Positions 2 to 43,722 of a DNA stretch of 64,000 bases are shown piece after piece. Both the position numbers and the translations under genes were made by a program. Each line of letters opens with the position of its first letter. Position 1 is the stretch's first letter. This DNA comes from Thermoplasmata archaeon. GTDB lineage: Archaea; Thermoplasmatota; Thermoplasmata; Lutacidiplasmatales; JAMCUS01. The DNA lies in the NCBI GenBank assembly GCA_049966015.1, contig JBMFVL010000001.1:6000-69999 (forward strand), written 5' to 3'. The notes beneath the pieces were generated by a model. That model worked only from the letters and a program-made list of their open reading frames with translations. It searched no databases and was not told the origin of the DNA.

Positions 2-847
2 ATTGATCCGTTGGGGGAATTTACAGACATAGTAAATAAATTAGGGGGGGAAGTAGTGTATTTGAACACTGAAAAAGGCATAATTAATCCACTAGACCCT
101 AGAACTTCTTGGGGGGATATACATGAAAAAATAATACAAGTTAAAACTCTTTTAAAAACCATTTTTTCCTCACTCAATGATGAAGATTTAAGCAGTTTGG
201 ATAAAGTTTTATTTAATTTGTATAACAAATACAAAGAGCCTACTTTTTCTGATTTGCTTAGCATACTTAAAAATGAAGATATTAAATTGAAAAAAATTTT
301 ATCTACTTTCACTGAAGGATCTTTAGCTAAAAACAATTCACATACTTCAGTTTCTATAAACAAAAATCTAATTTCATTTTCACTTAAAAATATAAATCCT
401 GAGTTATTTTCTTTTTATATCACATTATCATTGAATTTTATATATGGTGTCATAAAAAAAACAAAAGGAAATAAAATTATTATAATTGATGAGGCACATT
501 ATATGCTAATAAATGATAGCACAAGCTGGTTTATGGAATATATGTCTAGGCATGTAAGGCATTATATGTGTGGCATTACCTTTGTTTCACAAAATGCAGA
601 AGATTTTCTATCTAATCATTATGGAAAAACAATTATTAACAATTCCTACATACAACTATTGTTTAGGCATGAGACTGTTAGCGAAAAAATGATTGACTTT
701 TATGGCCTTACATCAAACGACCAGAAATACATTTTGGAATCCAGAGGTGGAAAAAAGGATTCTTATTCAGAAGCTTTGATGAAAATAGGAACAGAGAGGA
801 TACCACTCCGGATTATTTCTACACCTATGGAACAGGAATTAGGTTAA
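2..847 (+). CDS. C-terminal part of an AAA-like ATPase of the VirB4/TrbE/HerA (DUF87) superfamily; the gene runs off the 5' window edge
   Basis: The reading frame is open from the window start. It contains a Walker B-like IIIIDEAHYML motif and a downstream ITFVSQNAEDF motif, typical of the C-terminal halves of conjugative or HerA-type ATPases. The start codon is not in the window. Confidence 0.4.
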   Translation: MDPLGEFTDIVNKLGGEVVYLNTEKGIINPLDPRTSWGDIHEKIIQVKTLLKTIFSSLNDEDLSSLDKVLFNLYNKYKEPTFSDLLSILKNEDIKLKKILSTFTEGSLAKNNSHTSVSINKNLISFSLKNINPELFSFYITLSLNFIYGVIKKTKGNKIIIIDEAHYMLINDSTSWFMEYMSRHVRHYMCGITFVSQNAEDFLSNHYGKTIINNSYIQLLFRHETVSEKMIDFYGLTSNDQKYILESRGGKKDSYSEALMKIGTERIPLRIISTPMEQELG

Positions 848-14980: not shown

Positions 14981-16960
14981 ATGAATCAGGGGAATGATTT
15001 GATAGATTCTTTAAACAATGCAAAAATGTCTTCATTCCATTTTAAAACATGGTTTGTTTCAGGGATGGGTTTTTTCACAGATGCTTATGATCTTTTTATT
15101 ATTGGAATGGTTATTGCAATCCTCAAGGGCCCTTGGAACCTGACTACTTCTCAGATCGGTATATTGGGTAGCACTACCTTGTTATCCTCTGTTATCGGTG
15201 CACTTGTTTTCGGCCGATTGCTTGACAAATATGGGAGGAAGAGAATTTACGGTATAGAAGTCATGATACTAATCATAGGTGCTGTTTTTTCTGCATTCTC
15301 TCAAAATTTTGATCAGTTGTTGTTATGGAGGTTTGTTTTAGGTATAGGTATAGGAGGGGACTATTCAGCAAGCTCTATTATTATGAGTGAATATTCTAAC
15401 AGGCAAGACCGTGGGAAACTTGTTGGCATGGTTTTTTCAATGCAGAGCATAGGGCTGTTGGTAGGTCCTTTGATAACCATGCTCCTTTTAACATTGAATA
15501 CTCCTTTGGATTTGGCATGGAGATTGTTGCTAGCAATAGGTGCTATACCACCTTTGCTTGTAGTTTACTTTAGGAGGAATATAGATGAATCCCCTAGATA
15601 TCTTCTTAAAGTTAAAGGTGACATAGAAAATGCAAGATTAGCTACGTCCCATGTAACGAATGTTGATTCTTTGAATTCTAATGTTGTCAAAAAAGTTAAC
15701 GTTACACCAAAAATATTTGTTACCAATAAAAAATATTTCCTTCTTATATTGGCAACTTCTTTAACATGGTTTTTAATGGACTGGGCCTTTTACGGAAACT
15801 CTATTTCGTCATCAATAATATTCAAAGATATAAGCCCTACTATAACACTTTACCAAACTGCTTTATATACATTTATAATTTTTCTTGTTTTTGCATTCCC
15901 AGGATACTGGTTAGCTACTGCATACCTTGACAGGATTGGCAGATATCCTATACAGCTCGCTGGTTTTGCAGTTATGGGATTGGTTTACCTTTTAATAGGG
16001 TTATACCCTGTCATTATGGGTAATCTGTATTATTTTATATCTTTGTATGGTATAAGTTATTTTTTCATAGAGTTTGGTCCTAATGTAACGACGTTTGTAT
16101 ATCCTACTGAAGTATTTCCTGTTAGCGTTAGGGGCACAGGAGATGGGATTTCAGCTGCAGCTGGAAAGATGGGTGCCTTTACTGGAACCCTTGCTTTTCC
16201 GTTTTTGGTTTATTGGTATCATTTGAATGGTGTATTTGTTATATTGGGTATTATTTCTATAGTTGGATTGATTGTTTCAGCTTTGCTACTTCCTGAGCCA
16301 AAAAATAGGACTCTTGAAGATGTTTCTGGGGAAAACGAATTGGAAACGATAGTTACAAAATTTTCACCTGTGTTAATGAATCATATGGAATATGTTATAC
16401 AGGCAGATAATAAGCTGAAAGATTTGTTTAATAACCCATCATCAGATACTGTAGATCAAATAAAGAAACTTGAACATGAAGCAGATGTTGTTGTGCACAA
16501 TATCCACAACGATTTGATAAAAGCCAATATTTCGAGTACAACACGAACCGATATGGTATATTTAACTTCATCTATTGACGATATTATCGATGGAATAGAA
16601 TCGATTGCAGCTAGAATGAGAATATTCAATTATCCAAAAGTCAATCAAAATATATTTGACCTTATAGAGGTTATACATCAATCCAATTACCAGATCATGA
16701 ATGGCTTGAAGCATTTTGATGATTTACTGTTAGGGGATTCAAAAGATATTGAAAAAGTTTGCATAATAGTTAATACACTCGAAAATAAGGGTGATGATAT
16801 CCTGAGAAAAGCGTTGAAAGAACTATTCGATAATGAAAAAGACCCTGTAAAAATTATAGTTTATAAAGAGATTTACGAAAAGTTAGAAATGGTTACGGAT
16901 TCATGTGAAGATGTAACGGATGTCTTTATGGAAATGATAACAAGGTATAAAAAAAATTAG
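14981..16960 (+). CDS. Phosphate:H+ symporter (PHS/Pho84-type MFS) fused to a C-terminal PhoU-like/DUF47 helical domain
   Basis: The N-terminal roughly 450 aa have the MFS fold with the PHS signature GMGFFTDAYDLFIIGMV. The C-terminal roughly 200 aa are an all-helical, acidic domain with a PhoU/DUF47-like pattern (LEHEADVVVHNIHNDL ... DDIIDGIESIA). Confidence 0.6.
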   Translation: MNQGNDLIDSLNNAKMSSFHFKTWFVSGMGFFTDAYDLFIIGMVIAILKGPWNLTTSQIGILGSTTLLSSVIGALVFGRLLDKYGRKRIYGIEVMILIIGAVFSAFSQNFDQLLLWRFVLGIGIGGDYSASSIIMSEYSNRQDRGKLVGMVFSMQSIGLLVGPLITMLLLTLNTPLDLAWRLLLAIGAIPPLLVVYFRRNIDESPRYLLKVKGDIENARLATSHVTNVDSLNSNVVKKVNVTPKIFVTNKKYFLLILATSLTWFLMDWAFYGNSISSSIIFKDISPTITLYQTALYTFIIFLVFAFPGYWLATAYLDRIGRYPIQLAGFAVMGLVYLLIGLYPVIMGNLYYFISLYGISYFFIEFGPNVTTFVYPTEVFPVSVRGTGDGISAAAGKMGAFTGTLAFPFLVYWYHLNGVFVILGIISIVGLIVSALLLPEPKNRTLEDVSGENELETIVTKFSPVLMNHMEYVIQADNKLKDLFNNPSSDTVDQIKKLEHEADVVVHNIHNDLIKANISSTTRTDMVYLTSSIDDIIDGIESIAARMRIFNYPKVNQNIFDLIEVIHQSNYQIMNGLKHFDDLLLGDSKDIEKVCIIVNTLENKGDDILRKALKELFDNEKDPVKIIVYKEIYEKLEMVTDSCEDVTDVFMEMITRYKKN

Positions 16961-20022: not shown

Positions 20023-20916
20023 TTAGCTTGAGGCTGTTTGGTTTGTATTAGATTGTATGGATACTACTGTTACATCAAAAGTTAAATCAACACCTACTAC
20101 TTGCTTATTGTAGTTAACTGTATATGTGGAATTGGAATAATTTATTCCGTATAGTATAAATGAATTGCCACTAAAATCTTTACCCATAATGTTTCCTATC
20201 ATTGAGGGGGTTACTAAGTTTTTAAGCATTATCGTAGTTCCAGAACTGTTAGATGTTATTCCTATTACTTCCATATTCCATGCATGGTAAGGATTTATTA
20301 TTTCGCCTATATATGGGGTAAACAATACAGAAATGTAACTTGAATTAACACTCATTATTGTATCGTTCCATCCCCAGTAAGGATCTTTAAACACAGCACC
20401 GATATCAGGGGGTTGGTTGGGATATAGCTTGGAATAGAAAGAGGTATTGTATGTTGCCATTGCAGATAGATTGCTTATAATAGGATAAGTTCTTATTAAA
20501 TTGGGGTTCATTTTTCCGTATCCTAGGGAGGGCGGAACCACAAATATTTTAGATTGATTAACAGACATTCCCAACAAGTTTTCCCAAAAGCCAGTTACTG
20601 TAATTATATATACATTGTTTCCACCACTGCTTCCTACATGTACTTTTAAAGGAGTATACTGATTGACACCCCTAAAAGTGAAGGAAACTGCTTTAGGATA
20701 AGACTGATTGTTTATTGCTACGCTGTACATAGAGGTATCAAATACCTGACCATTCGGCAAATATCCTATATAATTAACGCTTACATTGTCTCCTACTGCA
20801 ATTGTTATTGGAGGAGATACGGATGATGTTTGTTTAGGCATGTAGTAATATAGACCAGCTTCTACTGCAATACCTACTAAAATTACAACCACTATCGACA
20901 CATAATATTTGTTCAT
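20023..20916 (-). CDS. Membrane-anchored FKBP-type peptidyl-prolyl cis-trans isomerase with a C-terminal extension
   Basis: N-terminal TM anchor followed by FKBP motifs (GDNVSVNYIGYLPNGQVFDTS and VVPPSLGYG). Confidence 0.55.
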   Translation of the reverse strand: MNKYYVSIVVVILVGIAVEAGLYYYMPKQTSSVSPPITIAVGDNVSVNYIGYLPNGQVFDTSMYSVAINNQSYPKAVSFTFRGVNQYTPLKVHVGSSGGNNVYIITVTGFWENLLGMSVNQSKIFVVPPSLGYGKMNPNLIRTYPIISNLSAMATYNTSFYSKLYPNQPPDIGAVFKDPYWGWNDTIMSVNSSYISVLFTPYIGEIINPYHAWNMEVIGITSNSSGTTIMLKNLVTPSMIGNIMGKDFSGNSFILYGINYSNSTYTVNYNKQVVGVDLTFDVTVVSIQSNTNQTASS

Positions 20917-29121: not shown

Positions 29122-29142
29122 CTTTTAAAATATGTTATGTTT

Positions 29143-29262
29143 AGGTTGGGGGAGCCTTCAAACAAGGCTGAGAGGATCGTGTGAATCGACCCCTATACAC
29201 CTGATCCAGGTAATGCTGGCGTAGGGAAACCCTTGTGTATGGTATACCCCTCCTGGGGATAA
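29143..29262 (+). promoter_or_regulatory. TPP (THI-box) riboswitch
   Basis: Conserved TPP aptamer elements in order: GGGGAGCC ... CTGAGAGG ... ACCCC ... ACCTGATCCAGGTAATGCTGGCGTAGGGAAACCC. The 3' segment CCCCTCCTGGGG lies just upstream of the ATG and could occlude the RBS. Confidence 0.8.
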
Positions 29263-29268
29263 TAAAAA

Positions 29269-30393
29269 ATGGATAAGATTGGTAAAAATTGGAAGTTTAA
29301 GATTTTAGTTGTTGTGGCTATTGTGGTATTAGCGACGGTATTTTATGAAGGATACGTGCTTTATGTACAAAATCAAAAGAGTTCTGAACCTACACTTGTG
29401 ATATACACATATGGATCGCTGTTCAAATACGGTGCCAATCCAAATGAAACAATGAATATCGTTTTCGGTACATTTGAAAAGAAATACCATGTAAATATAG
29501 AGATAGAATACCTGAATAACATTCTCCAGACTTTAGAATCCCAAAAATCGAATCCTCAGGCAGACCTTGTAATTGGTTTAAGTAATGTAGAGGCACCAAC
29601 AGCAATTGAGAATGGGTTATTGGATCCGTATAACTATACTAACGATATTCCTTCCTTTTTGATCAATGGCCTTAGCAGCACCCACTACCTTACACCATAT
29701 GAATATTCATATTTAGCAATTGACTATACCATGTCCTTTTATAACCAGACCAATGGAAATGTTAGCCATTCTAATTTTTTGAATTTCTTAAACAGTACAT
29801 GGGCAAAAAATTTAATTTTAGAATCTCCGTTGACAGATACAACAGGCACAAATTTTTTGATATGGCAGATCGCTTTCTATGAATATGTACTTCACGACAA
29901 TAATTGGATTAGCTGGTGGAAAAGCATAAAGAATTATGCACTGATTGAAAGTGACTGGAGTACTGCCTTTAACCTTTTTACCACAAGTAATAATCCCCAA
30001 CAGCTCGTAGCCAGTTATTCTACTGACCCAGCTTATGAAATATACAACAACGGTGCGATGAACGGTACATTTAGCTATAACAGCACATTGTCTTATTATA
30101 ACAATACATATTACGGTTGGGATACTATATTCGGTATAGGAATAGTGCATGGTTCCACCCATTTGCTTTTGGACCAGGAATTTATCAACTGGTTTTTAAG
30201 CGGAACTGTACAATCTCAAATTCCTTTAAATGAATGGGCATACCCTGCAAATAATACAGTTATGTTACCTCCTGCATATAAATATGCCGTGAATCCCTCT
30301 AATGTTGTTCCTTTAAACAATTACCTTACACAACAACAAATATATTCAAACATGACATCGTGGTTAGAACAATGGCAATTAGCAATGAGTTGA
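29269..30393 (+). CDS. ABC transporter substrate-binding protein (thiamine/TbpA-like), membrane-anchored
   Basis: N-terminal TM anchor plus periplasmic-binding fold. First gene after the TPP riboswitch, followed by a permease and an ATPase. Confidence 0.6.
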   Translation: MDKIGKNWKFKILVVVAIVVLATVFYEGYVLYVQNQKSSEPTLVIYTYGSLFKYGANPNETMNIVFGTFEKKYHVNIEIEYLNNILQTLESQKSNPQADLVIGLSNVEAPTAIENGLLDPYNYTNDIPSFLINGLSSTHYLTPYEYSYLAIDYTMSFYNQTNGNVSHSNFLNFLNSTWAKNLILESPLTDTTGTNFLIWQIAFYEYVLHDNNWISWWKSIKNYALIESDWSTAFNLFTTSNNPQQLVASYSTDPAYEIYNNGAMNGTFSYNSTLSYYNNTYYGWDTIFGIGIVHGSTHLLLDQEFINWFLSGTVQSQIPLNEWAYPANNTVMLPPAYKYAVNPSNVVPLNNYLTQQQIYSNMTSWLEQWQLAMS

Positions 30394-31964
30394 GATGGAA
30401 ACTGTTTAAATGGTTAGGCATTTTAGCAGTTTTATTGCCTTTTATTTTATTTTTGTTTGTGCCTTTAATCTATTCTATATATTATGTACATCCTTTTTAT
30501 ATATACACCTTTTTTAATACACCATACAAGATAAAAATTTTTGAATTTTCATTGGAAAATTCTATGATACAGGGATTTTTGAGTGCGTTATGCTCTTTTG
30601 CAATAGGATATCCTGTGGGAATTATAATAGGGTTGTATCAATTCAGGTTTAAGAAGATTGTTCTCACATTATCCTACATTGCTTTTTTTATGCCATCTAT
30701 TTTGATGGTTTTTGCGTTCATTGAATTTTTTTATTTATTTCACTTTTACAATTTTTTTGGATTGTACGGGATTATTTTGGTTAACACTACTTTTAATGCC
30801 CCATTGATAGCAATTTTCACATCGAGTTCTACAGATCATATACCTGTTTCTTTAATATACAGTGCCAGATTGCTTAAGGCAAATATCATTAAAATTTTTA
30901 GAAAAATTTATTTCCCCTACACATATGAATCTGCTTTAATAGGTTTTATATTGGCGTTTATTTATTCTTTCATGGGCTTTACAGCACCTCTTATGATAGG
31001 GGGAACTTCTAATTACACCATGGAAATATGGATATACATACTATACAAATCATTTTTTGATGTTAAAGGAGCGGTTACTGTTGCTTTATTGCAAATTCTA
31101 ATTTTAATTATACCTGTTGCCATATATTTTATTTTATCATCTAAATCAATGTATCTTTCAAATTTATCAAGGAAGAAAGATAACTTATATTCATCGGCTA
31201 ATTACAAAAAAAGCCTTGCTGCATATGTGTTAGTTTCTTTATATACACTGTTTATTTCAATTCCATTTTTTACTATATTATATTATACATTGTTAGGAAC
31301 AGGGAAATTATCAATTATACCATTTTTAACTTTATTCAGCAATATAACCACGTATAAGATAGGGGTGCCTTATGTTAATGTTATTATAAATTCCTTATTT
31401 TTTTCAAGTATTGCAATGTTTTTATCAATGGGAATATCATTGATAGTGCTTTATTTTGGTGAAGAACTTATATGGATTAAGATTTCTATTGTGCTTCCAT
31501 TGATCGTTTCACCCATAGTATTAGCATTGGTAAATTACATGTTTTATATCAACATTTTTATCAACGTTTGGCCTATAATTATTATAGCACAGACAATGGT
31601 GTCTTTACCTATCGTATCTAGACTCATTGATAACTCCATAAAAATGGTACCTAAAAATCTGGAGTATTCTGCTATGTTGCTACATACAAGCAAATCAGAC
31701 ATATTTTTTAAAATAAAATTACCTATAATTAAATACACATTGATATTATCATCAATGCTCTCTTTTGTTATGGCATTAGGGGAGTTTGGTGCAACTTTTT
31801 TTATATTTACACCATTATTCACAACTATTCCTGTAAGCATATATGAATTTCAAAGTTTGAGGAATTTCACTCTTGCTTACGCTTCAGCTTCTATATTGTT
31901 TGTTATTACTTTTGTAATTCTTTATACTGTTTTTAGCAAGGAGGCATATAAATGGCAAAACTAG
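30372..31964 (+). CDS. ABC transporter permease with duplicated 6-TM domains (ThiP/FbpB family)
   Basis: About 530 aa with two permease repeats, the same size class as ThiP. Confidence 0.6.
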   Translation: MAISNELRWKLFKWLGILAVLLPFILFLFVPLIYSIYYVHPFYIYTFFNTPYKIKIFEFSLENSMIQGFLSALCSFAIGYPVGIIIGLYQFRFKKIVLTLSYIAFFMPSILMVFAFIEFFYLFHFYNFFGLYGIILVNTTFNAPLIAIFTSSSTDHIPVSLIYSARLLKANIIKIFRKIYFPYTYESALIGFILAFIYSFMGFTAPLMIGGTSNYTMEIWIYILYKSFFDVKGAVTVALLQILILIIPVAIYFILSSKSMYLSNLSRKKDNLYSSANYKKSLAAYVLVSLYTLFISIPFFTILYYTLLGTGKLSIIPFLTLFSNITTYKIGVPYVNVIINSLFFSSIAMFLSMGISLIVLYFGEELIWIKISIVLPLIVSPIVLALVNYMFYINIFINVWPIIIIAQTMVSLPIVSRLIDNSIKMVPKNLEYSAMLLHTSKSDIFFKIKLPIIKYTLILSSMLSFVMALGEFGATFFIFTPLFTTIPVSIYEFQSLRNFTLAYASASILFVITFVILYTVFSKEAYKWQN

Positions 31965-32887
31965 AGCTTGTAGACATAAGCAAAAAATATGGAAATTGGA
32001 AACTAGGCCCGGTATCAGTTACATTAAATGACGACGAATCTTTGACTATTCTTGGCCCTACTGGTTCAGGAAAATCAACGTTGCTCAAAATTATTGCAGG
32101 CATAGAAATGCCTGATGATGGCAAGGTTTTGGTTGATGGAAAAGATATAACAAACTTGCCTATTTATGAAAGGGACATAGGTATGATTTTTCAGGATTAT
32201 TCTCTATTTCCGCATTTAACTGCAAAAGAAAATATTTATTTTGGCTTGGACAATATCCCGTTGAGTAACAATAAAAAGGAAAGTCTTTTTAATAACATTA
32301 TTAAAACTTTGCATATTGAAAAATTAATGAATAAGTATCCACATCAACTTTCAGGTGGAGAAAAACAAAGAATTGCAATTGCAAGATCAGTAGTAATGAA
32401 ACCTTCTTTTTTGCTTTGTGATGAACCTCTGTCTTCAGTTGATTCACGTACTAGGGAAGAACTTCGCAGTGAACTAAAATCTTTGCAATACACTGACCAT
32501 ATCCAGATGGTTTATGTTACACATGATCATCTTGAAGGGATGTTTATCGGTGACAAAATTATGATTATAAATGAAGGTAAAGTAGAACAAGTATCTTCTT
32601 CAACAGATATTTATATGCATCCGAAAACACCTTTTGTTGCGTGGTTTGTGGGATTGAATGTGTTAAATATTGATAATAAAAGAATTGCTGTTGACCCATT
32701 TGATATAGAAATATCAGATGACGGAATTATTGAAGGGCATGTAATATCAGGGAGATATATATACAATACATGGATAGGTTATGTGAAGGTAGGCAACCAG
32801 ATGATAAAATTGCAAAGTTATTCAGATCAATTAAAATACATTGGCAAGGATGTCAAAATAAAAATTAAAAGATACATAAATTTGTAA
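31952..32887 (+). CDS. ABC transporter ATP-binding protein with a C-terminal TOBE-like domain (ThiQ/PotA-like)
   Basis: Walker A GPTGSGKST, signature LSGGEKQR, Walker B LLCDEP; C-terminal extension. Confidence 0.8.
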   Translation: MAKLELVDISKKYGNWKLGPVSVTLNDDESLTILGPTGSGKSTLLKIIAGIEMPDDGKVLVDGKDITNLPIYERDIGMIFQDYSLFPHLTAKENIYFGLDNIPLSNNKKESLFNNIIKTLHIEKLMNKYPHQLSGGEKQRIAIARSVVMKPSFLLCDEPLSSVDSRTREELRSELKSLQYTDHIQMVYVTHDHLEGMFIGDKIMIINEGKVEQVSSSTDIYMHPKTPFVAWFVGLNVLNIDNKRIAVDPFDIEISDDGIIEGHVISGRYIYNTWIGYVKVGNQMIKLQSYSDQLKYIGKDVKIKIKRYINL

Positions 32888-33435
32888 GATTAAATAAAAT
32901 TACCATCTAACATCTTTATATTATATATTTGCCATTAAATTTGCCTTTTTTCGTAGTTGAATAAGCATGACAATAATAATAGAATTTATAAAAATATTAT
33001 AGCATATCTGAAATGTTTTACCAGTAACATTAAAAATCATATAACATGATTTATAAATTTTTCATTCATTTTTCTCGTTTTAATGGAAAATTGGTTTGAT
33101 ATATACCAAAAAAATAGGGATAGGTATAATTTCTCCACTTTATATAGGAAATTATTCAGAATACCACAAATTAACTCTATTTATATAATATAATGTATAC
33201 TTTTACTAGATCTTAAATATCATCTACAATTAGAATGTTAAGGCTTTACATCTATTTTTAATTTACAGCATAGTACGCGCCATTTAATCTTTAAAACTTA
33301 CTTATTATGTAACTATGATGACCAATGTAGCTAATATTTGCAACATATATGTGAAATAAAATAACAATGTTTGCGTAATAAAATTTAACACTTTATAAAA
33401 CTAAAAAAATTATAAAATTAAAAGGTTTTGTTGTT

Positions 33436-36400
33436 TTACATTGCCGGAGGCTGTTGCTGGTTCTGGTCTTGTACTGGAGGTGCCTGTTGCTCTGTGGGTT
33501 GTGCTTGCTCAGGTGCTGGGGGTGCTGTTGTGGGGGATTTGCCCTTTTTCTTCATCATCATGAATACTGCGACAACAATGATGACAATTATTACAATCAC
33601 TACTACTGCGTATATCAGATCATTGTTGCTGCTTGATGATGAGGTTGTAGTCTTGGTCGGTACTGTTGTGGTAACGGTTATTGTAACAGTGTTTGTTTTT
33701 ATTGTTGTACCTGCACTGTCTGTAACATTTACGTATGCTGTGTATGTTCCTGCCTTTGCATATTTATATGTGGTTGCGTTAGAAGAACTTGTCGTTGTGT
33801 TTCCATTTCCGAAGTAGTACTTGTATGTGTATGGAGCTACACCACCCTGGGCTGTAACATTGAAGTATACTGTTCCGTTTACAATTACGCTTGTTGGAGA
33901 TACCGTTAAAGTAGCTGTCAGCGGAGCAATCACTTTGGATATAACCAGTACATATTGTTGCTCCGTGGGTATGGGCATACCCTTGTAAGTGCTTGTTGCA
34001 TTGACCAATATACTTGTGTTGGCAGGAGTTGATGAACTAGTGCTTACAGTTACTTCAACAAAACCAGTTGCGTTGGTAGTTCCACTTGTAGCTGATAAGG
34101 ATATACCGTTTGCAGAGGGGGAAATGTAATAGCCACTCTGGTTAAGGGCAGCCAAGCTCAAAGATACAGGCATATTTGCCATCGGGCTACCTACCTGGTT
34201 AAGTATTTGGGCAGATATGTTAACGCTCTTTCCAATTACAACTACTCCACTTGAAGCATGTACATTTAGCATTGGCTGGTTATATGCCAGCGTTGTTCCT
34301 TGCTGCTCTATTGCAATTGAATTGAAACCGCTTATAGGACCGGCACCACCTGCAAATACCGTAGCTGTTAAGTAAAACTCTACGTTGGGTATTAGAGGTG
34401 TAAAGGCAGGCCATCCACCTGGTACCATGTTATACGTTTTCTTATTCTGTACGTATTTGTAGAAAACAGATCCGTTGAAGGTTATGTTGATGTACCCTGC
34501 AGATGTTGTATTTACAAATAGCTCATAGTTGCTGTCTACCACCTTTGTTCCTGTTATCGGGTTGGAAGAATCCTTTATTGCCTGGTACTGTACATTTGTT
34601 CCTGCTGTTACTGTTATGTTGCCCTGGTACCTGCCTGTGAGCTGTGTTAAGGTAAGCATGACAGGAGTGTTACTCACTGGCTTTCCTCCAGATGTAACAT
34701 GTATGCTTATCGGAATACTCTGATTCCAGTTTACGTTGTAAAAGTTGTTTGTGGGTGTAATCGTTGATGATACCACTACATTATCTGGTGTAGCACCACC
34801 TGCTGAAAATGGAATGTCTGTAAACTGGTTGCCTACATTGGGTAGGTAAGCTTCAAATCCACCTGCCAATGAAAGGTAAGCAGATGCCGCATGGAATCCC
34901 GATGGCTGTACAAACCCTTTGGAACCTACGAAATTGTAGTAGGACAACGTATTGTACCCGCTTGCAGCAGTTGCAAAGAACTCTAAAGGTACAGGGGATG
35001 TGCTTGTTACGCCTGCATAATTAACCCAGTTGACTTGCCTCATTATACCATATGCACCACCGGTAATCCACAAATAAAACACTTGCTGGTATGTGGGCAT
35101 GAAGGTATTCAATGCACTGCTTAGTGAATAACTTATATTGGCGTATCCAGCTGCATTGGTTGTTATTGAGTTTGTTTGTGTAGTCCCGTTCCAGAACATT
35201 GAACTATCGTAATACTGATAACCACTGGATAAAGCAGAGGGATTCACTATTCCTGGGAATCCATCTAGAACAGCAGGGCTTACTTGCTGGAAAGTAACTG
35301 GAATGTTTGGTTCACCTTTTCCAGTTGCTGTATTGACAGCCCTTACTACCACTGACAAATTTGAACTCAGACCTGCTGTCGGACTTAAGGATACAACTTG
35401 AAGTGTGTATGGAGGAACAGCACTGTTGCCAACCATGACCTCTGTGTTGTTTATAGCCATGTTCTCATATCCACCTTTGTAGGCTGTTGCAGTTATGTTA
35501 ACCAGTGTTCCTGGCATTGTGTTCTTTGCCGTGAACTCAAATTTGGCTATACCATTAGCATTTGTCAAACCACCTGGAACAGGGATCAATCCCTGGTCGG
35601 AGAACATACCAACCGTTGCTGCCACTACTGGCTTGCCATTAGAAGTTACCGATACGTTGAACGTATATGTTTGCCCTGGCCATACCGTATTGTTTGCTGG
35701 CAATCCGCTTATTGAAATATTCAGTTCTGGAAGATATCCAGGTATGAAAGACAATGGGGACACAACACCAGAAGCGTTTGTCAATGTCAAATATCCTGTA
35801 GAATTGGATATTGCATGAACTTGCTGCAATAATATCCCGCTTGTATCAAAATCCATGTAAGCAACCCCTGCTGGGAAATTACCTGCAGAAGGGTTTAGAT
35901 TCCATATAACTACAGAGGCATTTGCAACGCCTTTTCCACTGCTATCCACTACCCTGTAGGGAAGCACGTTGGTTGTGTTCATTGCCATTGTCGGCAATGT
36001 CCCGTGTGTTAATATCATCGTATTGCCTTCTACTGTCAGTGCAACGCTTGCATATGTAGGTACATACGTCACAGTGGATGTTGAATTTTCTGTTATCGAT
36101 GCCTGCAAAGTCACTTTATCAGTTGCAGCAGGTGGCAATTGCGAGAAGTTGAACTGGTCAGTACCATACGTGCCGTACACCTGCTGGACTATTCCATTAA
36201 CAATGGAGAAGTTCGTGGTGAACTGCCCTGCAATGTTGGTTGTACCTGTTTTGGAACCGAAGAACACCAATCCCAGTGGGTTGGCGCTCATTGACACTGT
36301 TGCACCCTGTATTGGCATACCATTGTCACCTGTAACGGTAACTGTTACATTTCCTGTGCTTCCACCTTTATATACATTCACGTTCTGGTCCAACTTAATG

Positions 36401-38370
36401 GTTGCATGCAAATGCACAGTAGTACTGCTTGCCACAGGGGCTTTGTAATTGCTCGGAACCAAGTTAGCAAAAGTCCACCCGTTGTTAACAGCAGGTGATG
36501 ATGAAGGACTTGCTACCCATCCACTCCAGTGCATAATACTGTAGGCATCTATATCATCAGATGAGTACAGCAATATGTATGGCAACTGCACTGCCAGTAT
36601 ACCTTCGGCCTCCTTTATTTCAGCTTGCCTTATAGAGGGATTCATTTGACTGTTGGATTCCGCAAGCAAATTATCAAAGGTTGCATTGAAGAACCCTTCG
36701 TAATTTGCCCCCACAGGAGGTTGCTGGCTTGATTGGAATAAGGAATATAACCAGGATGAGGGATCCCCTCCTGGTGCACTTAAAACCCATCCAAGGATGA
36801 ACATATCAAAGTTGTATGGGGGTGTGCTTATATCTGCAACGATTACGTTGAAATCCGTTGGTACTGCTTGCGCATCCAATCCAGCTTCTTGCATCCATTG
36901 CTGTATGTATTGCGCTGTGGTTGCCCTTATCGGATCGTATGATGCAGGTGGAACCAGTATGGGTATCTGCAAAACCGTGCCGTTGTACTCAAAGTAATTG
37001 TTTGGACCTGGTGTTTGCCCAGCATGCTGCAGAGTCATCCCAGGAACGGCCAACAGATCTTTATCTGCCTGGGTAATGTTGAATGTGTAAGGATACTGAG
37101 AATTTACAGATGCATTGTAATACGCCCCAGACATCGGTAATACTACATTTGTACCAGTTATACCGTATCCTTGAAGTATATTGGATAATATAAATTGCTT
37201 GTTTACCAAGTGTGCTACAGCTTGCCTGAATCCTATGTAATTAAATGGGGCTCTTCTCAAATTGAACGTCATGTAAAAGAACCCGAAAGAAGGTTCTAAA
37301 GATAATCCTATACCAGGAGTGGATTGCAATTGGCTTACGTATGAAGGAGGTATGGACCAGTCTACCAAATCGATTTCACCGCTCATCAATGCCAATACCG
37401 CTGAAGTAGTAGAACCGTATAATACATATTGGACTTCATTCATATGTGCCTGGAAAGAACCCATCCAGTAGTTGGGGTTGGCGTACATTATTGCACCTAC
37501 GTTAGGAGTCCATCCGCCTTGGTAAAACTGACCGCTTCCTATATCAGCTAAAGCGTACTTTGTACCACCTACACTAATATAACCACCATCCCAGGTGCTT
37601 ACAGCCCCATACATCTCACTGTTGTTATTAGACCACATGTGGTTCTGCCATATTTTTCCTGGTATCAGGTATTCAGTAAGGGTCATGTAATAAAACGGAG
37701 CATATGGTTGATTTAAATTGAAGACTACTACATTTCCAGTTGGACCTTTTGGCATCGTTACATTAGCTACAAATATACCTGCAGGTGTGCCTGTTGATAT
37801 TGTACCGTTTGTCAAGTATTTGATTGTGGATGCTGGAACAGGGCTACCAGATGGATTTACAGCTAATGGCAGCAGAGAGGGATTTGTGTTGGGTGAATTT
37901 ATGCCTACCTGGTATGAAACAAAAACATCCCATGCATCCAAATGTGTATTTGCAACTGATGATGCTGTTGCGTTGGTCATCATTGCCTGTGGAACGATCC
38001 ATGTAATGTTGGTTGCAAAGGTTACTGTGAATGATGTGAAGTTAGCATTTGGGGTTATGCTTGTGGCAGCCCAGTTCATGTAACCGTTGTTAGATATTGG
38101 AATGCTTGTTAACGAGTCGTAGAAGTAACCATAATAATTGGCATCCCATATACTGTTATCCAGTGGATTGAATGGATTCAATCCCGCAAAATCTTGTTGG
38201 TTACCAATAGTAAGAGTGCCGCTCGGTTTAATGTTGCTTTTAGGCTGTGCTGGATGTATAACCTGGTTTATTTTTGCAACATTAGGGGATGCAGCTGCAC
38301 TCAATGCGCTGCTCAACATTAAAAAAGTCGCTACGAAAGCTAGGCTCAACAATAAGTATCGTTTAATCAT
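33436..38370 (-). CDS. Giant cell-surface glycoprotein (1644 aa): signal peptide, OppA-like family-5 solute-binding domain, Ig/PKD-like repeats, Thr/Ser linker, C-terminal TM anchor and a Q/P-rich cytoplasmic tail
   Basis: Signal peptide MIKRYLLLSLAFVATFLMLSSALSAAAS. The first roughly 650 aa resemble SBP family 5 (GEIDLVDW ... FRQAVAHLVNKQ). A PKD-like repeat lies near the C-terminus (GTVYFNVTAQGGVAPYTYKYYFGNGNT). N-x-S/T sequons are very dense. The C-terminus reads TTTSSSSSNN - hydrophobic helix - KKKGK - QP-rich tail. Confidence 0.6.
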   Translation of the reverse strand: MIKRYLLLSLAFVATFLMLSSALSAAASPNVAKINQVIHPAQPKSNIKPSGTLTIGNQQDFAGLNPFNPLDNSIWDANYYGYFYDSLTSIPISNNGYMNWAATSITPNANFTSFTVTFATNITWIVPQAMMTNATASSVANTHLDAWDVFVSYQVGINSPNTNPSLLPLAVNPSGSPVPASTIKYLTNGTISTGTPAGIFVANVTMPKGPTGNVVVFNLNQPYAPFYYMTLTEYLIPGKIWQNHMWSNNNSEMYGAVSTWDGGYISVGGTKYALADIGSGQFYQGGWTPNVGAIMYANPNYWMGSFQAHMNEVQYVLYGSTTSAVLALMSGEIDLVDWSIPPSYVSQLQSTPGIGLSLEPSFGFFYMTFNLRRAPFNYIGFRQAVAHLVNKQFILSNILQGYGITGTNVVLPMSGAYYNASVNSQYPYTFNITQADKDLLAVPGMTLQHAGQTPGPNNYFEYNGTVLQIPILVPPASYDPIRATTAQYIQQWMQEAGLDAQAVPTDFNVIVADISTPPYNFDMFILGWVLSAPGGDPSSWLYSLFQSSQQPPVGANYEGFFNATFDNLLAESNSQMNPSIRQAEIKEAEGILAVQLPYILLYSSDDIDAYSIMHWSGWVASPSSSPAVNNGWTFANLVPSNYKAPVASSTTVHLHATIKLDQNVNVYKGGSTGNVTVTVTGDNGMPIQGATVSMSANPLGLVFFGSKTGTTNIAGQFTTNFSIVNGIVQQVYGTYGTDQFNFSQLPPAATDKVTLQASITENSTSTVTYVPTYASVALTVEGNTMILTHGTLPTMAMNTTNVLPYRVVDSSGKGVANASVVIWNLNPSAGNFPAGVAYMDFDTSGILLQQVHAISNSTGYLTLTNASGVVSPLSFIPGYLPELNISISGLPANNTVWPGQTYTFNVSVTSNGKPVVAATVGMFSDQGLIPVPGGLTNANGIAKFEFTAKNTMPGTLVNITATAYKGGYENMAINNTEVMVGNSAVPPYTLQVVSLSPTAGLSSNLSVVVRAVNTATGKGEPNIPVTFQQVSPAVLDGFPGIVNPSALSSGYQYYDSSMFWNGTTQTNSITTNAAGYANISYSLSSALNTFMPTYQQVFYLWITGGAYGIMRQVNWVNYAGVTSTSPVPLEFFATAASGYNTLSYYNFVGSKGFVQPSGFHAASAYLSLAGGFEAYLPNVGNQFTDIPFSAGGATPDNVVVSSTITPTNNFYNVNWNQSIPISIHVTSGGKPVSNTPVMLTLTQLTGRYQGNITVTAGTNVQYQAIKDSSNPITGTKVVDSNYELFVNTTSAGYINITFNGSVFYKYVQNKKTYNMVPGGWPAFTPLIPNVEFYLTATVFAGGAGPISGFNSIAIEQQGTTLAYNQPMLNVHASSGVVVIGKSVNISAQILNQVGSPMANMPVSLSLAALNQSGYYISPSANGISLSATSGTTNATGFVEVTVSTSSSTPANTSILVNATSTYKGMPIPTEQQYVLVISKVIAPLTATLTVSPTSVIVNGTVYFNVTAQGGVAPYTYKYYFGNGNTTTSSSNATTYKYAKAGTYTAYVNVTDSAGTTIKTNTVTITVTTTVPTKTTTSSSSSNNDLIYAVVVIVIIVIIVVAVFMMMKKKGKSPTTAPPAPEQAQPTEQQAPPVQDQNQQQPPAM

Positions 38371-38454
38371 ATTTCTTCCTCCAAAACTTAAGCGTTTTAT
38401 TCAATTATTGCTATATATAGTTTTCCATTTAATAACTTAAAATTAAATGAAAAG

Positions 38455-40869: not shown

Positions 40870-43722
40870 GTGAATAAAAACAAATTGTTAGATGACAGGA
40901 TTGTTTTGTACCTTTCTAATTTCGGAGGTAAAGGAAAGGTTGTAAAGCTTGAGCATTTAGCAGAGGTATTGGCTATACCTCTAATTGACTTAAAAGATTC
41001 TTTGTTTAGGTTGATGGAAAAAGATTTGATTGAAAAGGTTAATTTGAAGGATGTTGTTGCATTGAAGTTGACTAAAAATGGGGAGAAATATTCTAAAAAT
41101 TTAAATGAAGTTGATGTTGTAGAATGGATTTTTAATGCAGGCATTAAAGAGAATTTTGGAACAGAGCAAAAGGGGGAGGAAAAACTATATCTGATAGAAA
41201 ATGTGAATATTGAGAATATTTATAACTTATTTTATAAATTAGTTGATAGGGATGTTCAGGGATTGGTTATTTCCAGGCCAAGCAAGAAGGGATTGATAAA
41301 AAAAAGACCATATGTAAAATATTTCATGCTGACTACATCTCCAGGGGAATTCAACATTGACCCTACTAAGCTTATATCAATAATATCTACCATAACTACA
41401 GCCCTTCCTGAAAATGGTGTTCTTCTTTTTGATGGTATTGAATACCTTATAAGCCAGAATGGTGAAGAAAGCATCATTAAATTTATTCAACATACTATGG
41501 ATTACCTGATTTCCAAAAACATTACTTTGCTTTTGCCTGTGTTGCCCGATGCCATTTCTAAAAGGTCCCTTGCCTTGTTGGAAAGGGAAATGGAGATTAT
41601 AAAAAATGATGAGGATTTAACCTTAATTAAAAAACCAATTTTCAACAAAAAAAATGAGGATGTCCAGGATTTTGTAGATATGGTTTCATATCTGGAAACT
41701 ATTGAAAAGAATTTTAAAAATAAAGGTGAAGTTTTTTACATATGGGGTTTTTCAGGCGTTGGAAAAACTACACTGGTAAAAAAAGCAATATCTTCCTATA
41801 GGCATTTATTGATGTGGGTAGATGTTGGGGATGGTATATCAGAAAAGAGAATTCTGGAAGAATTGTCATACGATTTAACAGTAAATGGTTTTCCAATGCT
41901 AGAAAATTACCTTTCTACCGTTGATGTCGTTGACCCCTTGCATGTAACAGGTATACTTAAGGATATACTGGGTAGTTTAAAGAATGTTGTACTGGTGTTT
42001 GATAATATACATAATGCAGGAAAAGGTTTGATAGATATTGTTGATAATATTGCGAATATTTGCCATAACGATAAAATTGGCACATTATTTGTTATAAGCA
42101 GGGAGAGTAATAGTATGGATAAGCCTTTTTTTAACAAGATCTACTTAAATGGCTTTGACCTTAAAGGTGTTGAGGAGTTTCTATCTTCAAAAGGCATTAA
42201 TGATGTAGAAAGGGCAAAGAGATTATATGAAGCAACCTCTGGAAACCCTTTACTTATTAAATTAGTCTACAATCTAGAATCTATAGATAACGTAAAGATT
42301 ACCGTTTCAGATTATGTTAAGAAAATCATAGAAGAAACAGAGATAGAAAGTAAAGAAATTTTAGGTAGGTTGAGCGTTTATAGATATCCCGTTAGCATAA
42401 GAGCCATTGCATTTTCAGAAGAAGATAAAAGATTGGTTGACAAACTTGTAAAGGGGGGTTTTATACAAGAAAGCAAAAACGGATTGGTTGCCGTCCATGA
42501 TTTAATAAAAGATTATTTTATTAATTATAGTTCTAAAGAAAATTTGAACCGTTGGCATGATTTGGCAATTAAGCACTACCAGTACTTGATTTCGCAATCA
42601 GAGGATGAAAGGGGGTTCGTTTCCTATGAACTTGTATATCATACTCTGCATATAGGAGATTATTCAAATGCAAAAAAAACGATCGTTCAGAATTTTGTAG
42701 CCATTTTAGATGTTGGCCTAGGTAAGGATTTGATGAACCTTCTTAAAGATTTTGTTGATAAAAACAGGGAGGACTTGGAAATACAGCTATTGTATGCACA
42801 CCTTCTTGCAGAAAACCGTTCTTACGATGAATCTTTACAGTTGTACATAGATGTTTTGAATAAATTGCATAAATTACCTAAAACAATGGAGGTACTAATA
42901 AAAATTGGCAATATACATTCTAGAATTGCAGATATATTACTTTACAAAGAGAATATTGAAGATAGCATGAAAAATTATGAACACTGTTTGGATATCGGTT
43001 TTACCCTTTCTAATTATGACCTTCTAGCACATTCCTATATGGGATTGGGGAGTGTATATTTATATGAAAAAAAATATGAAATTTCTTACCAATATTATTC
43101 ACGCCTACTGGAACTTCTAGATAAATTGAAAGATCCTTATTTGGTAATAGATATATATAACAAAGTGGCCACTTTATTTTATCACTGGAATAGATACGAT
43201 GAAGCGATTGAATATTTGATGAAAGGTATAGAAGTTTGTGATAAATACTCGTTGAATTCCCATAAAGCGCAACTGTTTTTCATGCTGGGAAAGATTCAGG
43301 CATATATGAATAGATTGGATTATGCATTGTCTAATTTTTATAGCGCAAGGAAAGTACTTGTTAGGTATTCTAGAGAAAGGGATATTGCGAGGGTGGATTA
43401 TAACATTTCATTATTATTGTATTTGAAGGGAAAGATTATAGATTGTAACAAATTTTTGAATGAAGCAAAAAAAATAAAAAACATGGTTAAAGATGAGAAT
43501 TTTCAGCTTTATAGCTTGTGGATGGAAATGATAATATTAGGCATTAAAAAAGAGGAAAATATGTTGATCGAATACATAAAAAAATACAATAATAAAGAGA
43601 ATGCCTTGTTGATAAGTGCCTTTGAAAATAAAGATTATGGTAATGTTGAGGACAAACTTCACGACCCACTTCTAATGGAAATAAAGGATACTCTTAAATT
43701 TGTTAGTATGTTCCAAAAATAA
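40870..43722 (+). CDS. STAND-class P-loop NTPase: N-terminal wHTH, DUF835-like region, central NB-ARC/NACHT-like ATPase, C-terminal TPR repeats
   Basis: wHTH-like N-terminus. Walker A GFSGVGKTT, Walker B VVLVFDNIH, sensor-like TLFVISRE. More than 400 aa of TPR-like helical repeats at the C-terminus. 950 aa. Confidence 0.6.
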   Translation: MNKNKLLDDRIVLYLSNFGGKGKVVKLEHLAEVLAIPLIDLKDSLFRLMEKDLIEKVNLKDVVALKLTKNGEKYSKNLNEVDVVEWIFNAGIKENFGTEQKGEEKLYLIENVNIENIYNLFYKLVDRDVQGLVISRPSKKGLIKKRPYVKYFMLTTSPGEFNIDPTKLISIISTITTALPENGVLLFDGIEYLISQNGEESIIKFIQHTMDYLISKNITLLLPVLPDAISKRSLALLEREMEIIKNDEDLTLIKKPIFNKKNEDVQDFVDMVSYLETIEKNFKNKGEVFYIWGFSGVGKTTLVKKAISSYRHLLMWVDVGDGISEKRILEELSYDLTVNGFPMLENYLSTVDVVDPLHVTGILKDILGSLKNVVLVFDNIHNAGKGLIDIVDNIANICHNDKIGTLFVISRESNSMDKPFFNKIYLNGFDLKGVEEFLSSKGINDVERAKRLYEATSGNPLLIKLVYNLESIDNVKITVSDYVKKIIEETEIESKEILGRLSVYRYPVSIRAIAFSEEDKRLVDKLVKGGFIQESKNGLVAVHDLIKDYFINYSSKENLNRWHDLAIKHYQYLISQSEDERGFVSYELVYHTLHIGDYSNAKKTIVQNFVAILDVGLGKDLMNLLKDFVDKNREDLEIQLLYAHLLAENRSYDESLQLYIDVLNKLHKLPKTMEVLIKIGNIHSRIADILLYKENIEDSMKNYEHCLDIGFTLSNYDLLAHSYMGLGSVYLYEKKYEISYQYYSRLLELLDKLKDPYLVIDIYNKVATLFYHWNRYDEAIEYLMKGIEVCDKYSLNSHKAQLFFMLGKIQAYMNRLDYALSNFYSARKVLVRYSRERDIARVDYNISLLLYLKGKIIDCNKFLNEAKKIKNMVKDENFQLYSLWMEMIILGIKKEENMLIEYIKKYNNKENALLISAFENKDYGNVEDKLHDPLLMEIKDTLKFVSMFQK

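Follow-up and report, generated by a model that had tools for sequence, protein, structure and literature searches.

A 1644-residue protein with an Opp-class binding head, a long, mainly beta-sandwich stalk and a C-terminal membrane anchor in an acidophilic Thermoplasmata archaeon

Binding proteins of ATP-binding cassette (ABC) importers are normally thought of as compact and close to the membrane. A tethered design is already documented in the C-terminally anchored OppA proteins of the Sulfolobus/Aeropyrum type, which are about 600–900 amino acids (aa) long overall. These OppA-class binding proteins carry a signal peptide of the signal peptidase I (SPase I) type, a glycosylated Ser/Thr linker and a C-terminal transmembrane helix (PMC3387779). 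Here we analyse a much larger protein, encoded at 33436..38370 on the minus strand of a 64,000-nucleotide stretch of a Thermoplasmata archaeon (contig JBMFVL010000001.1, positions 6,000 to 69,999; hereafter the window). Its N-terminal solute-binding head sits on a long stalk above a C-terminal anchor, a design that departs from the compact one. We consider it fairly probable that the protein is a tethered, glycosylated Opp-class binding receptor, which feeds an Opp-type importer encoded elsewhere and is also part of the surface coat.

The giant gene is one unbroken open reading frame (ORF) of 1644 codons. It is the largest gene of the window, as a first-pass annotation of the stretch had stated, and the runner-up encodes 950 aa. 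The identical protein has the public accession MGC8580760.1 with the title 'MAG: ABC transporter substrate-binding protein [Thermoplasmata archaeon]'; it comes from a 105-kb contig of a metagenome-assembled genome (MAG). The earlier guess of a Thermoplasmata host was thus about right, and the host is an acidophilic member of this group. The 90%-identity cluster of the protein holds 7 more sequences. An orthologue with kept gene order is present on a contig of a sister strain (L001). The protein consists of the following parts:

38287..38370, minus strand: Sec-type signal peptide, residues 1 to ~28 (MIKR, a hydrophobic core and LSAAAS), from the sequence; the AlphaFold2 (AF2) model has a helix at 2–26 and then a disordered segment
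36436..38223, minus strand: solute-binding head, residues ~50–645, family-5 cluster C (OppA/DppA/AppA-type), from Pfam, PDB sequence matches, AF2 and Foldseek
36199..36423, minus strand: first Ig-like (Big_1-like) domain, residues 650–724; Big_1 at 30 bits (gathering score 34.9), AF2 predicted local distance difference test (pLDDT) ~80–94
34282..36198, minus strand: lineage-specific stalk, residues 725–1363, beta-rich in a low-confidence model, ~3.1 sequons per 100 aa
33919..34281, minus strand: beta-sandwich module, residues 1364–1484, MG4/Big_1-like; MG4 at 24.4 bits (gathering score 24.7), AF2 pLDDT ~90
33664..33918, minus strand: PKD domain, residues 1485–1569; PKD_4 at 31.6 bits and PKD at 28.8 bits, both above gathering, with PDB PKD matches
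33619..33663, minus strand: Thr/Ser-rich linker, residues ~1570–1584 (...TTTVPTKTTTSSSSSNND), from the sequence
33553..33618, minus strand: C-terminal transmembrane helix, residues ~1585–1606, then KKKGK; from a hydropathy scan and an AF2 helix at 1583–1608
33439..33552, minus strand: Pro/Gln-rich cytoplasmic tail, residues 1607–1644, made up of KKKGK and a 33-aa Pro/Gln-rich part

The assignment of the N-terminal domain to the family-5 solute-binding proteins (SBPs), made in the first-pass annotation, holds at the level of both sequence and structure. Pfam SBP_bac_5 (PF00496) aligns to residues 175–548 with E=1e-42 (147.1 bits versus a gathering score of 32.4), and sequence matches of the head in the PDB are GbpA, AppA, OppA and DppA at 1e-14 to 1e-10. 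The AF2 model of residues 1–660, which was built on a 60-sequence alignment, has a pLDDT of 82.6 and a predicted template-modelling score (pTM) of 0.81. When this model was compared with the PDB by Foldseek, 172 matches at E<=1e-3 were obtained, and every one of the 50 listed is a cluster C binding protein. AppA (1xoc) matches at E=1.5e-34, with a template-modelling (TM) score by target of 0.87. The head model superposes on AppA, DppA, GbpA, NikZ and chitin-/mannan-oligosaccharide binding proteins at E ~1e-34 and 15–19% identity. The modelled fold is certainly the bilobate cluster C fold with an extra domain. Hallmark residues of the family are kept, including N65, D148, G280, R382, Y478-D479-P480-x-R482 and W528. 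The NCBIfam equivalogs SapA, Opp4A, NikA and DppA match the head far below their cut-offs, and therefore no specific orthology can be assigned to it.

The signal peptide is 100% identical in an orthologue of 90% identity. The protein sequence has no Cys residue, no lipobox and no twin-arginine motif. It is therefore not a lipoprotein, since Cys is missing altogether, and anchoring as a lipoprotein, through Tat or by archaeosortase is ruled out by the missing Cys, RR and CTERM motifs and by the long tail. The codons of the signal peptide were also compared between the two strains. Over codons 1–27 (38290–38370, minus strand) the synonymous divergence (dS) is 0.06, versus 0.77 for the whole gene, a comparison that covers only 27 codons in two strains. 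It suggests nucleotide-level constraint around the translation start.

About 920 residues of mostly beta-sandwich stalk lie between the end of the head (~645) and the linker (~1570). About 800 aa of Ig/PKD-like repeats had been proposed for this part. The proposal stands for three confident sandwiches (650–724, 1364–1484 and the PKD domain), but the rest of the stalk is poorly modelled and the Big_1 and MG4 matches are below threshold. Likewise, the domain-by-domain structure prediction that had been suggested as a check succeeded for the head (pTM 0.81) but not for the whole stalk (pLDDT 52.9), in which an aromatic/Gly-rich segment of ~200 aa (residues ~1019–1216) has no confident structure. 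The head and the first Ig-like domain form the module that is conserved across the stalked family described below.

No PDB sequence homologue of the stalk was found outside the PKD domain. Of 1.84 billion representative proteins, the 150 best include no match to the stalk outside PKD other than the protein's own cluster; this search was swamped by thousands of PKD-repeat proteins that match the PKD segment only, and stalk relatives were judged within these best 150. A word-indexed search with the stalk returned PKD proteins only. Foldseek of the stalk gave generic strings of MG domains with a TM score of ~0.12, and this fold search is uninformative because the stalk model is of low confidence. 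The internal repeats of the stalk resemble each other weakly (best E ~4e-4), which rules out a recent tandem duplication.

The Thr/Ser linker, the single C-terminal transmembrane helix and the Gln/Pro-rich tail, which had been predicted earlier, are confirmed by sequence, hydropathy and the AF2 helix. The KKKGK motif after the helix indicates type-I topology by the positive-inside rule. The membrane-proximal segment of the tail varies among the cluster members. In contrast, the last 21 residues (1624–1644; 33439–33501, minus strand; QPTEQQAPPVQDQNQQQPPAM, QPTEQQAPP(V/A)QDQNQQQPPAM) are the same, bar one V/A exchange, in the 8 cluster members that reach the C-terminus. A long Ig/PKD stalk with a distal binding domain is the usual design of an adhesin, and a tail end that is near-invariant across variants, where the tails of relatives are short and basic, might point to a sensor. 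If so, the ligand bound by the head would sit on a surface, in biofilm matrix or on a partner cell, or the head would signal its occupancy through the Pro/Gln tail, with no uptake. SBPs act as chemoreceptor ligands in other systems, according to a passage of PMC13556227. However, the tail has just 38 aa, no signalling domain is found, no chemotaxis or two-component genes adjoin the giant gene, and the architecture is indistinguishable from that of operon-encoded relatives. We regard an adhesin or sensor as quite unlikely.

The protein contains 41 N-X-S/T sequons, one per 40 residues, versus 26.3 ± 4.5 expected from 2000 composition-preserving shuffles, in agreement with the dozens of N-glycosylation sites claimed before. 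Thirty-eight of the 41 are shared with the orthologue of 90% identity. Sequons are denser in the stalk (3.1–5.6 per 100 aa) than in the head (1.6 per 100 aa). Charged residues make up 7.2% of the protein, versus 22–30% in cytoplasmic proteins of the window. Other extracytoplasmic proteins of the window are also charge-poor (11% in a ThiB-like protein and 8.4% in a membrane-anchored FKBP), and such a low charge is the expected signature of extracellular, exposed proteins of an acidophile. Sequons and composition support the predicted character of a surface glycoprotein.

The ratio of nonsynonymous to synonymous divergence (dN/dS) against the sister strain is 0.079 for the whole gene, 0.089 for the head, 0.03–0.11 for stalk segments and 0.16 for the tail. 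Housekeeping neighbours have dN/dS of 0.02–0.13, and their amino-acid identity is matched by the 90% of the giant gene. Purifying selection extends over the whole length of the gene, which is not decaying. Nor is it diversifying in the manner of a surface antigen, a reading that is ruled out by dN/dS of 0.03–0.16 in every segment. The dS against the sister strain is itself raised, with 0.77 for the giant gene and 0.74 for the ThiB gene versus ~0.45 for most neighbours.

A first scan of genome contigs with the whole giant protein gave no match. With just the head as query, 83 proteins were obtained. About 45 of these relatives, from Thermoplasmata, 'Methanobacteriota' and Euryarchaeota MAGs, are 890–990 aa long and have SBP_bac_5, Big_1/Invasin_D3/CarboxypepD_reg-type domains, a transmembrane segment at the C-terminus and a basic tail. 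When species-representative genomes were scanned with the alignment of the family, 80 loci were obtained, nearly all Thermoplasmata-related (DHVE2/Aciduliprofundum, Methanomassiliicoccales, Proteinoplasmatales and unclassified Thermoplasmata), and cultured Thermoplasmatales are absent from the 80 loci kept. They include 23 giants of 1420–2202 aa. Every complete giant has the C-terminal transmembrane segment, and so do all complete members of at least 885 aa except L064, at least in the form of a transmembrane-like segment.

BLASTP alignments of the window protein to the 23 giants cover the head, and many continue into the first Ig domain (to ~696–723). Head identity to stalked relatives is at most 32%; past the first Ig domain, the stalk is lineage-specific and cannot be aligned. 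Charged residues make up 14–23% of the relatives, whose tails are short and strongly basic, versus 7% and a Pro/Gln tail in the window lineage. The window protein has all the parts that define its relatives: the head, the first Ig domain, further sandwich modules and the C-terminal transmembrane segment. Judged by domain content, an SBP5 head on an Ig-like stalk with a C-terminal transmembrane segment is a recurrent family of 890–2202 aa in Thermoplasmata-related archaea. The head stands on three to more than 15 beta-sandwich modules above the anchor. The family is widespread and apparently undescribed, since no published description was found in the literature, and its members are annotated merely as 'ABC transporter substrate-binding protein' or 'Ig-like domain-containing protein'.

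Whether homologues pair with opp permease genes elsewhere had been left as a check by the first-pass annotation, and they do. By our own tally of the 62 informative relatives with enough flanking DNA, 42 are followed directly by oppB-oppC-oppD-oppF-type genes; these 42 comprise 12 of 22 giants (here at least 1400 aa) and 30 of 40 mid-size members. The Opp-type permease is within ~0.8 kb of the operonic members, and the ATPases follow 3.4–5 kb further on. Two of these operons, next to P0003 (1559 aa) and P0033 (903 aa), were examined one gene at a time and contain oppB, oppC and two ABC_tran+oligo_HPY ATPases. The remaining relatives are orphans. They sit among housekeeping genes and include a coherent DHVE2 clade, which gives the best full-length head matches (31–32%). 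In four MAGs an orphan occurs together with an operonic paralogue (L085+L068, L035+L075, L070+L051 and L065+L060). The earlier proposal that an OppA fold was co-opted into a surface glycoprotein agrees with the anatomy and the surface-glycoprotein character, but with 42 of 62 relatives linked to opp genes, co-option is not the most economical reading. It is rather likely that the window protein is the acidophile, orphan representative of a Thermoplasmata-wide family that is mostly encoded with its importer.

Some permeases beside the stalked binding proteins are themselves oversized and carry large additional domains (L002 15762–17972; L007 10803–15003; L021 13207–15582), with OppC-type proteins of 736–791 aa and an OppB-type protein of 648 aa, where OppB/OppC-type permeases usually have ~300 aa. 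One of them carries a PQQ-like beta-propeller. These permeases may provide extracytoplasmic platforms matched to the stalked binding proteins.

The giant gene has candidate expression signals of its own, found by inspection:

38411..38420, minus strand: TATA-like box ctatatatag, 41–50 nt 5' of the start codon
38378..38382, minus strand: GGAGG Shine-Dalgarno-like motif, 8–12 nt 5' of the ATG
33402..33435, minus strand: T-rich stretch directly after the stop codon, a candidate archaeal terminator

The TATA-like box lies in an 84-bp gap that separates the gene from the MetAP gene upstream, and the giant gene appears to be monocistronic with a candidate promoter of its own. Its GC content is 41–46%, versus ~33% in the flanks, and GC at second (GC2, 0.46) and third (GC3, 0.39) codon positions is in both cases the highest among 49 window ORFs compared. 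The GC2 value, and with it most of the local GC rise from 33% to 43%, results from a charge-poor, Ser/Thr/Ala/Gly/Pro-rich composition that is common to the other extracytoplasmic proteins of the window. The raised GC3 may reflect expression level. Horizontal transfer is not favoured as the cause of the GC bump, because GC2 is driven by composition and because, in the sister strain, the gene keeps its place and is conserved to the same degree as the genes around it.

An apparently monocistronic gene among housekeeping genes, with its own TATA-like box and Shine-Dalgarno-like motif and with the top GC2 and GC3 of the window, would suit a structural coat protein. In this explanation the protein would be an S-layer-like or exterior-protein-layer glycoprotein of a wall-less acidophile, and its head a canopy or a passive nutrient- or ion-binding surface without delivery. 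The sequons are conserved, and their density of one per 40 aa is the one quoted for S-layer proteins of thermoacidophiles (PMC11284389). The same source describes an S-layer-less Asgard archaeon whose dominant glycoprotein is an oligopeptide-type SBP. Thermoplasmatales without an S-layer bear a dense, non-crystalline glycoprotein layer of ~20 nm with unassigned components (PMC12448462). Orphan giants form stable clades, and the Aciduliprofundum member sits among housekeeping genes beside a glycosyltransferase. Through its invariant cytoplasmic tail, the protein could be linked to some partner in the cell interior.

Several results speak against a purely structural role. No S-layer family is present among the Pfam and NCBIfam matches at E<=1, and there is no archaeosortase (PGF-/PEF-/VPXXXP-CTERM) sorting signal: no CTERM model is among the NCBIfam matches, no such motif stands before the transmembrane helix, and the protein continues for 38 aa behind it. 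Of the relatives with this architecture, two thirds are in opp operons. Purifying selection acts on the head (0.089) just as strongly as on the stalk, and the family core is kept in the head; a cap that served only as a spacer would have no need of this. The raised GC is also largely explained by the composition described above. We regard a coat protein without delivery as rather unlikely. The coat and receptor readings are not exclusive, however, since an abundant tethered binding protein is part of the coat by default.

It is a tentative and rather improbable idea that the orphan giants of the window lineage and of the DHVE2/Aciduliprofundum clade are principal envelope components of Thermoplasmata, and that they make up the non-crystalline ~20-nm exterior protein layer of S-layer-less Thermoplasmatales or the DHVE2 S-layer. 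If true, heads that bind nutrients would form a canopy on glycosylated stalks, linked to the cell interior by the conserved tails, and the envelope would double as a nutrient-capture device. The window protein is in any case a specific candidate for the exterior protein layer of wall-less acidophilic Thermoplasmata, which has been seen by electron cryo-tomography and not assigned to genes. Vinogradov and colleagues are said to have identified, in 2012, five Asn-rich surface glycoproteins in Thermoplasma acidophilum. The supplements of PMC12448462 and PMC3750248 yielded no sequences of candidate surface proteins.

The first-pass annotation had also stated that no ABC permease or ATPase is adjacent to the giant gene. 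This is not correct, as a convergently transcribed importer operon, which is not part of the feature, adjoins it:

29138..32887, plus strand: thiamine-type ABC importer operon, convergent to the giant gene
29138–29244, plus strand: thiamine pyrophosphate (TPP) riboswitch RF00059, directly preceding the operon (72.2 bits versus a gathering score of 54.3)
29269–30393, plus strand: ThiB-subfamily binding protein, 374 aa
30360–31964, plus strand: fused permease with two BPD_transp_1 domains, 534 aa
31952–32887, plus strand: ABC ATPase without an oligo_HPY domain

By its gene content the neighbour is a self-contained, riboswitch-controlled archaeal thiamine importer. Its permease and ATPase genes lie 548 bp beyond the 3' end of the giant gene, and this physical proximity is all that would speak for the giant protein as their binding component. 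The operon, however, is convergent and has its own ThiB-subfamily binding protein and TPP riboswitch; the permease is a fused two-domain protein of the Thi/Fbp type and not OppB/OppC, and the ATPase lacks oligo_HPY. A thiamine importer next to the giant gene has no counterpart beside any of the 80 related loci. The giant protein belongs to a different SBP family, and the ThiB role is filled by the 374-aa protein. A partnership with the adjacent ABC genes is effectively refuted by these points, and we give it next to no chance. The spacer between the two convergent genes (32888–33435, 548 bp) is very AT-rich (21–29% GC) and long for a compact archaeal genome. It contains no ORF of at least 80 aa and no Rfam family at the gathering threshold.

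When OppB/C/D/F of the relatives were compared with the 64-kb window by tblastn, no Opp-type permease was found, and no Opp-type permease or ATPase is present in 25 kb of the sister-strain locus. The giant gene is therefore an orphan with respect to its own transporter class. In the receptor model that we favour, the protein would be exported via Sec and its signal peptide cleaved by SPase I. Glycans would be added at up to 41 sequons, more densely on the stalk than on the head. The C-terminal helix would hold the protein in the membrane, with the conserved Pro/Gln tail in the cytoplasm. Outside the cell, the N-terminal Venus-flytrap head would capture an oligomeric nutrient and pass it on to a permease/ATPase of the Opp type whose genes lie elsewhere in the genome, as is common among orphan binding proteins. 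The protein would also be a constituent of the surface glycoprotein coat, because of its size and glycan load. The co-occurrence of orphan and operonic paralogues in single MAGs fits several binding proteins sharing one permease, and DppA1-A5 all feed DppBCDF according to a passage of PMC4206461.

Peptides are the likeliest ligands, because acidophilic Thermoplasmata are peptidolytic and acidophilic Thermoplasmatales express PepT-family binding proteins, as does the peptidolytic Cuniculiplasma (PMC7285479). The window also encodes M61 and S9 peptidases, which are weak support for a peptide ligand. The modelled fold would fit oligosaccharide binders equally well. In a by-eye reading of the HMMER alignment to GbpA, two positions occupied by Arg and Asp in GbpA are Pro in the window protein. 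We take these Arg and Asp residues to bind peptide termini in DppA; as they are apparently not conserved, the ligand class cannot be transferred to the head.

This apparent loss is one of several points that count against the receptor model, together with the missing Opp-type genes in the window and in 25 kb of the sister strain. The head keeps 74 of 111 positions (67%) that are conserved in operonic relatives, core motifs included, and is the most divergent of the stalked members. Other orphans retain 76–95% and operonic members at least 71%, and only the stalk-less P0028 is lower. Many of the lost positions are charged residues, as would be expected from acid adaptation. P0028 (737 aa, 46–48% identity) is the closest relative of the head, and it has neither stalk nor C-terminal anchor and is an orphan in four contexts. 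In a crude neighbour-joining tree the orphan giants fall into coherent clades (DHVE2 and the window lineage), which would also fit a long-standing non-transport function. Finally, the stalk could be up to roughly 30 nm long if all modules have ~95 aa, and a rigid stalk of this length would hold the head away from a membrane permease. The model therefore needs hinges or a folded-back stalk, neither of which is resolved by AF2.

How a ligand is handed over to a permease from a head tethered tens of nanometres away is the mechanistic question raised by the stalked design. If the protein is merely one more tethered OppA, the finding is ordinary, and its main value lies in a corrected annotation context, with the neighbouring ABC genes being a thiamine importer.

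Some further observations were made in the window and on related contigs. P0028 on contig L003 (4124–9752, 9917–12130) adjoins IS605 OrfB/TnpB and DDE transposase genes and has lost the YDPxR motif of the family. The 297-aa FKBP-type prolyl isomerase at 20023–20916 (minus strand) begins with a hydrophobic anchor and has 8.4% charged residues and 3.7 sequons per 100 aa. It is probably a glycosylated foldase that works outside the cell; the P0028 contig carries a similar FKBP gene of 294 aa (L003 304–1188). At 14981–16960 (plus strand) lies a 659-aa MFS/Sugar_tr transporter with a PhoU_div (DUF47) domain fused to its C-terminal end, an architecture of which we know no description. The 950-aa protein at 40870–43722 (plus strand) is STAND-like and combines DUF835, a P-loop NTPase (AAA_22/NB-ARC-like) and TPR repeats. 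It is 87.5% identical in the sister strain, and none of the genes compared exceeds its dN/dS of 0.133. At the window edge, an ORF that reaches almost to the first nucleotides (11–847, plus strand) has a match to the TraG/AAA_10 P-loop domain; it may belong to a conjugative or integrated element or be what is left of one.

Compared with bacterial cluster C periplasmic proteins (B. subtilis AppA 1xoc, E. coli/Yersinia DppA, H. parasuis GbpA, NikA/NikZ and the oligosaccharide-binding proteins of Vibrio and Thermotoga), the window protein has the same fold and Pfam family, with TM scores by target of 0.80–0.87. It differs in its identity of just 15–19%, in a head of ~600 aa versus ~500 aa, and in its anchor and stalk, as the bacterial proteins are soluble or lipid-anchored and stalk-less. 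Neither the 64-kb window nor the sister-strain locus encodes OppB/OppC permeases and oligo_HPY ATPases with it. Like archaeal Ig-like S-layer glycoproteins (such as Haloferax csg and Sulfolobales SlaB, partly after PMC3387779), the protein is secreted, sequon-rich, built of beta-sandwich strings and C-terminally anchored, and the genes of such glycoproteins are usually monocistronic too. Unlike them, it has a complete transporter-type binding protein as its N-terminal third, and it has no S-layer family match and no PGF-CTERM-type signal.

The C-terminally anchored OppA-class proteins of Sulfolobus/Saccharolobus solfataricus and Aeropyrum pernix (Elferink 2001, Gogliettino 2010 and Balestrieri 2011, as summarised in PMC3387779) share with the window protein the SPase-I signal, the family-5 domain, the Ser/Thr linker and the C-terminal transmembrane helix. 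They are likewise surface glycoproteins of acidophiles or thermophiles, a property that is predicted here. In these crenarchaeal proteins the linker directly follows the binding domain. In contrast, the window protein has an insert of ~920 residues of beta-sandwich and PKD modules between the two, which roughly triples its size, and a Pro/Gln cytoplasmic tail, of which that summary reports no counterpart. The basic design is thus documented, and what is new is the long beta-sandwich spacer and, in the window lineage, the conserved Pro/Gln tail. With the stalked SBP5 proteins of DHVE2/Aciduliprofundum, Methanomassiliicoccales, 'Methanobacteriota' and others, the window protein has in common a signal peptide, the SBP5 head, a homologous first Big_1-like domain, a variable beta-sandwich stalk and the C-terminal transmembrane segment.

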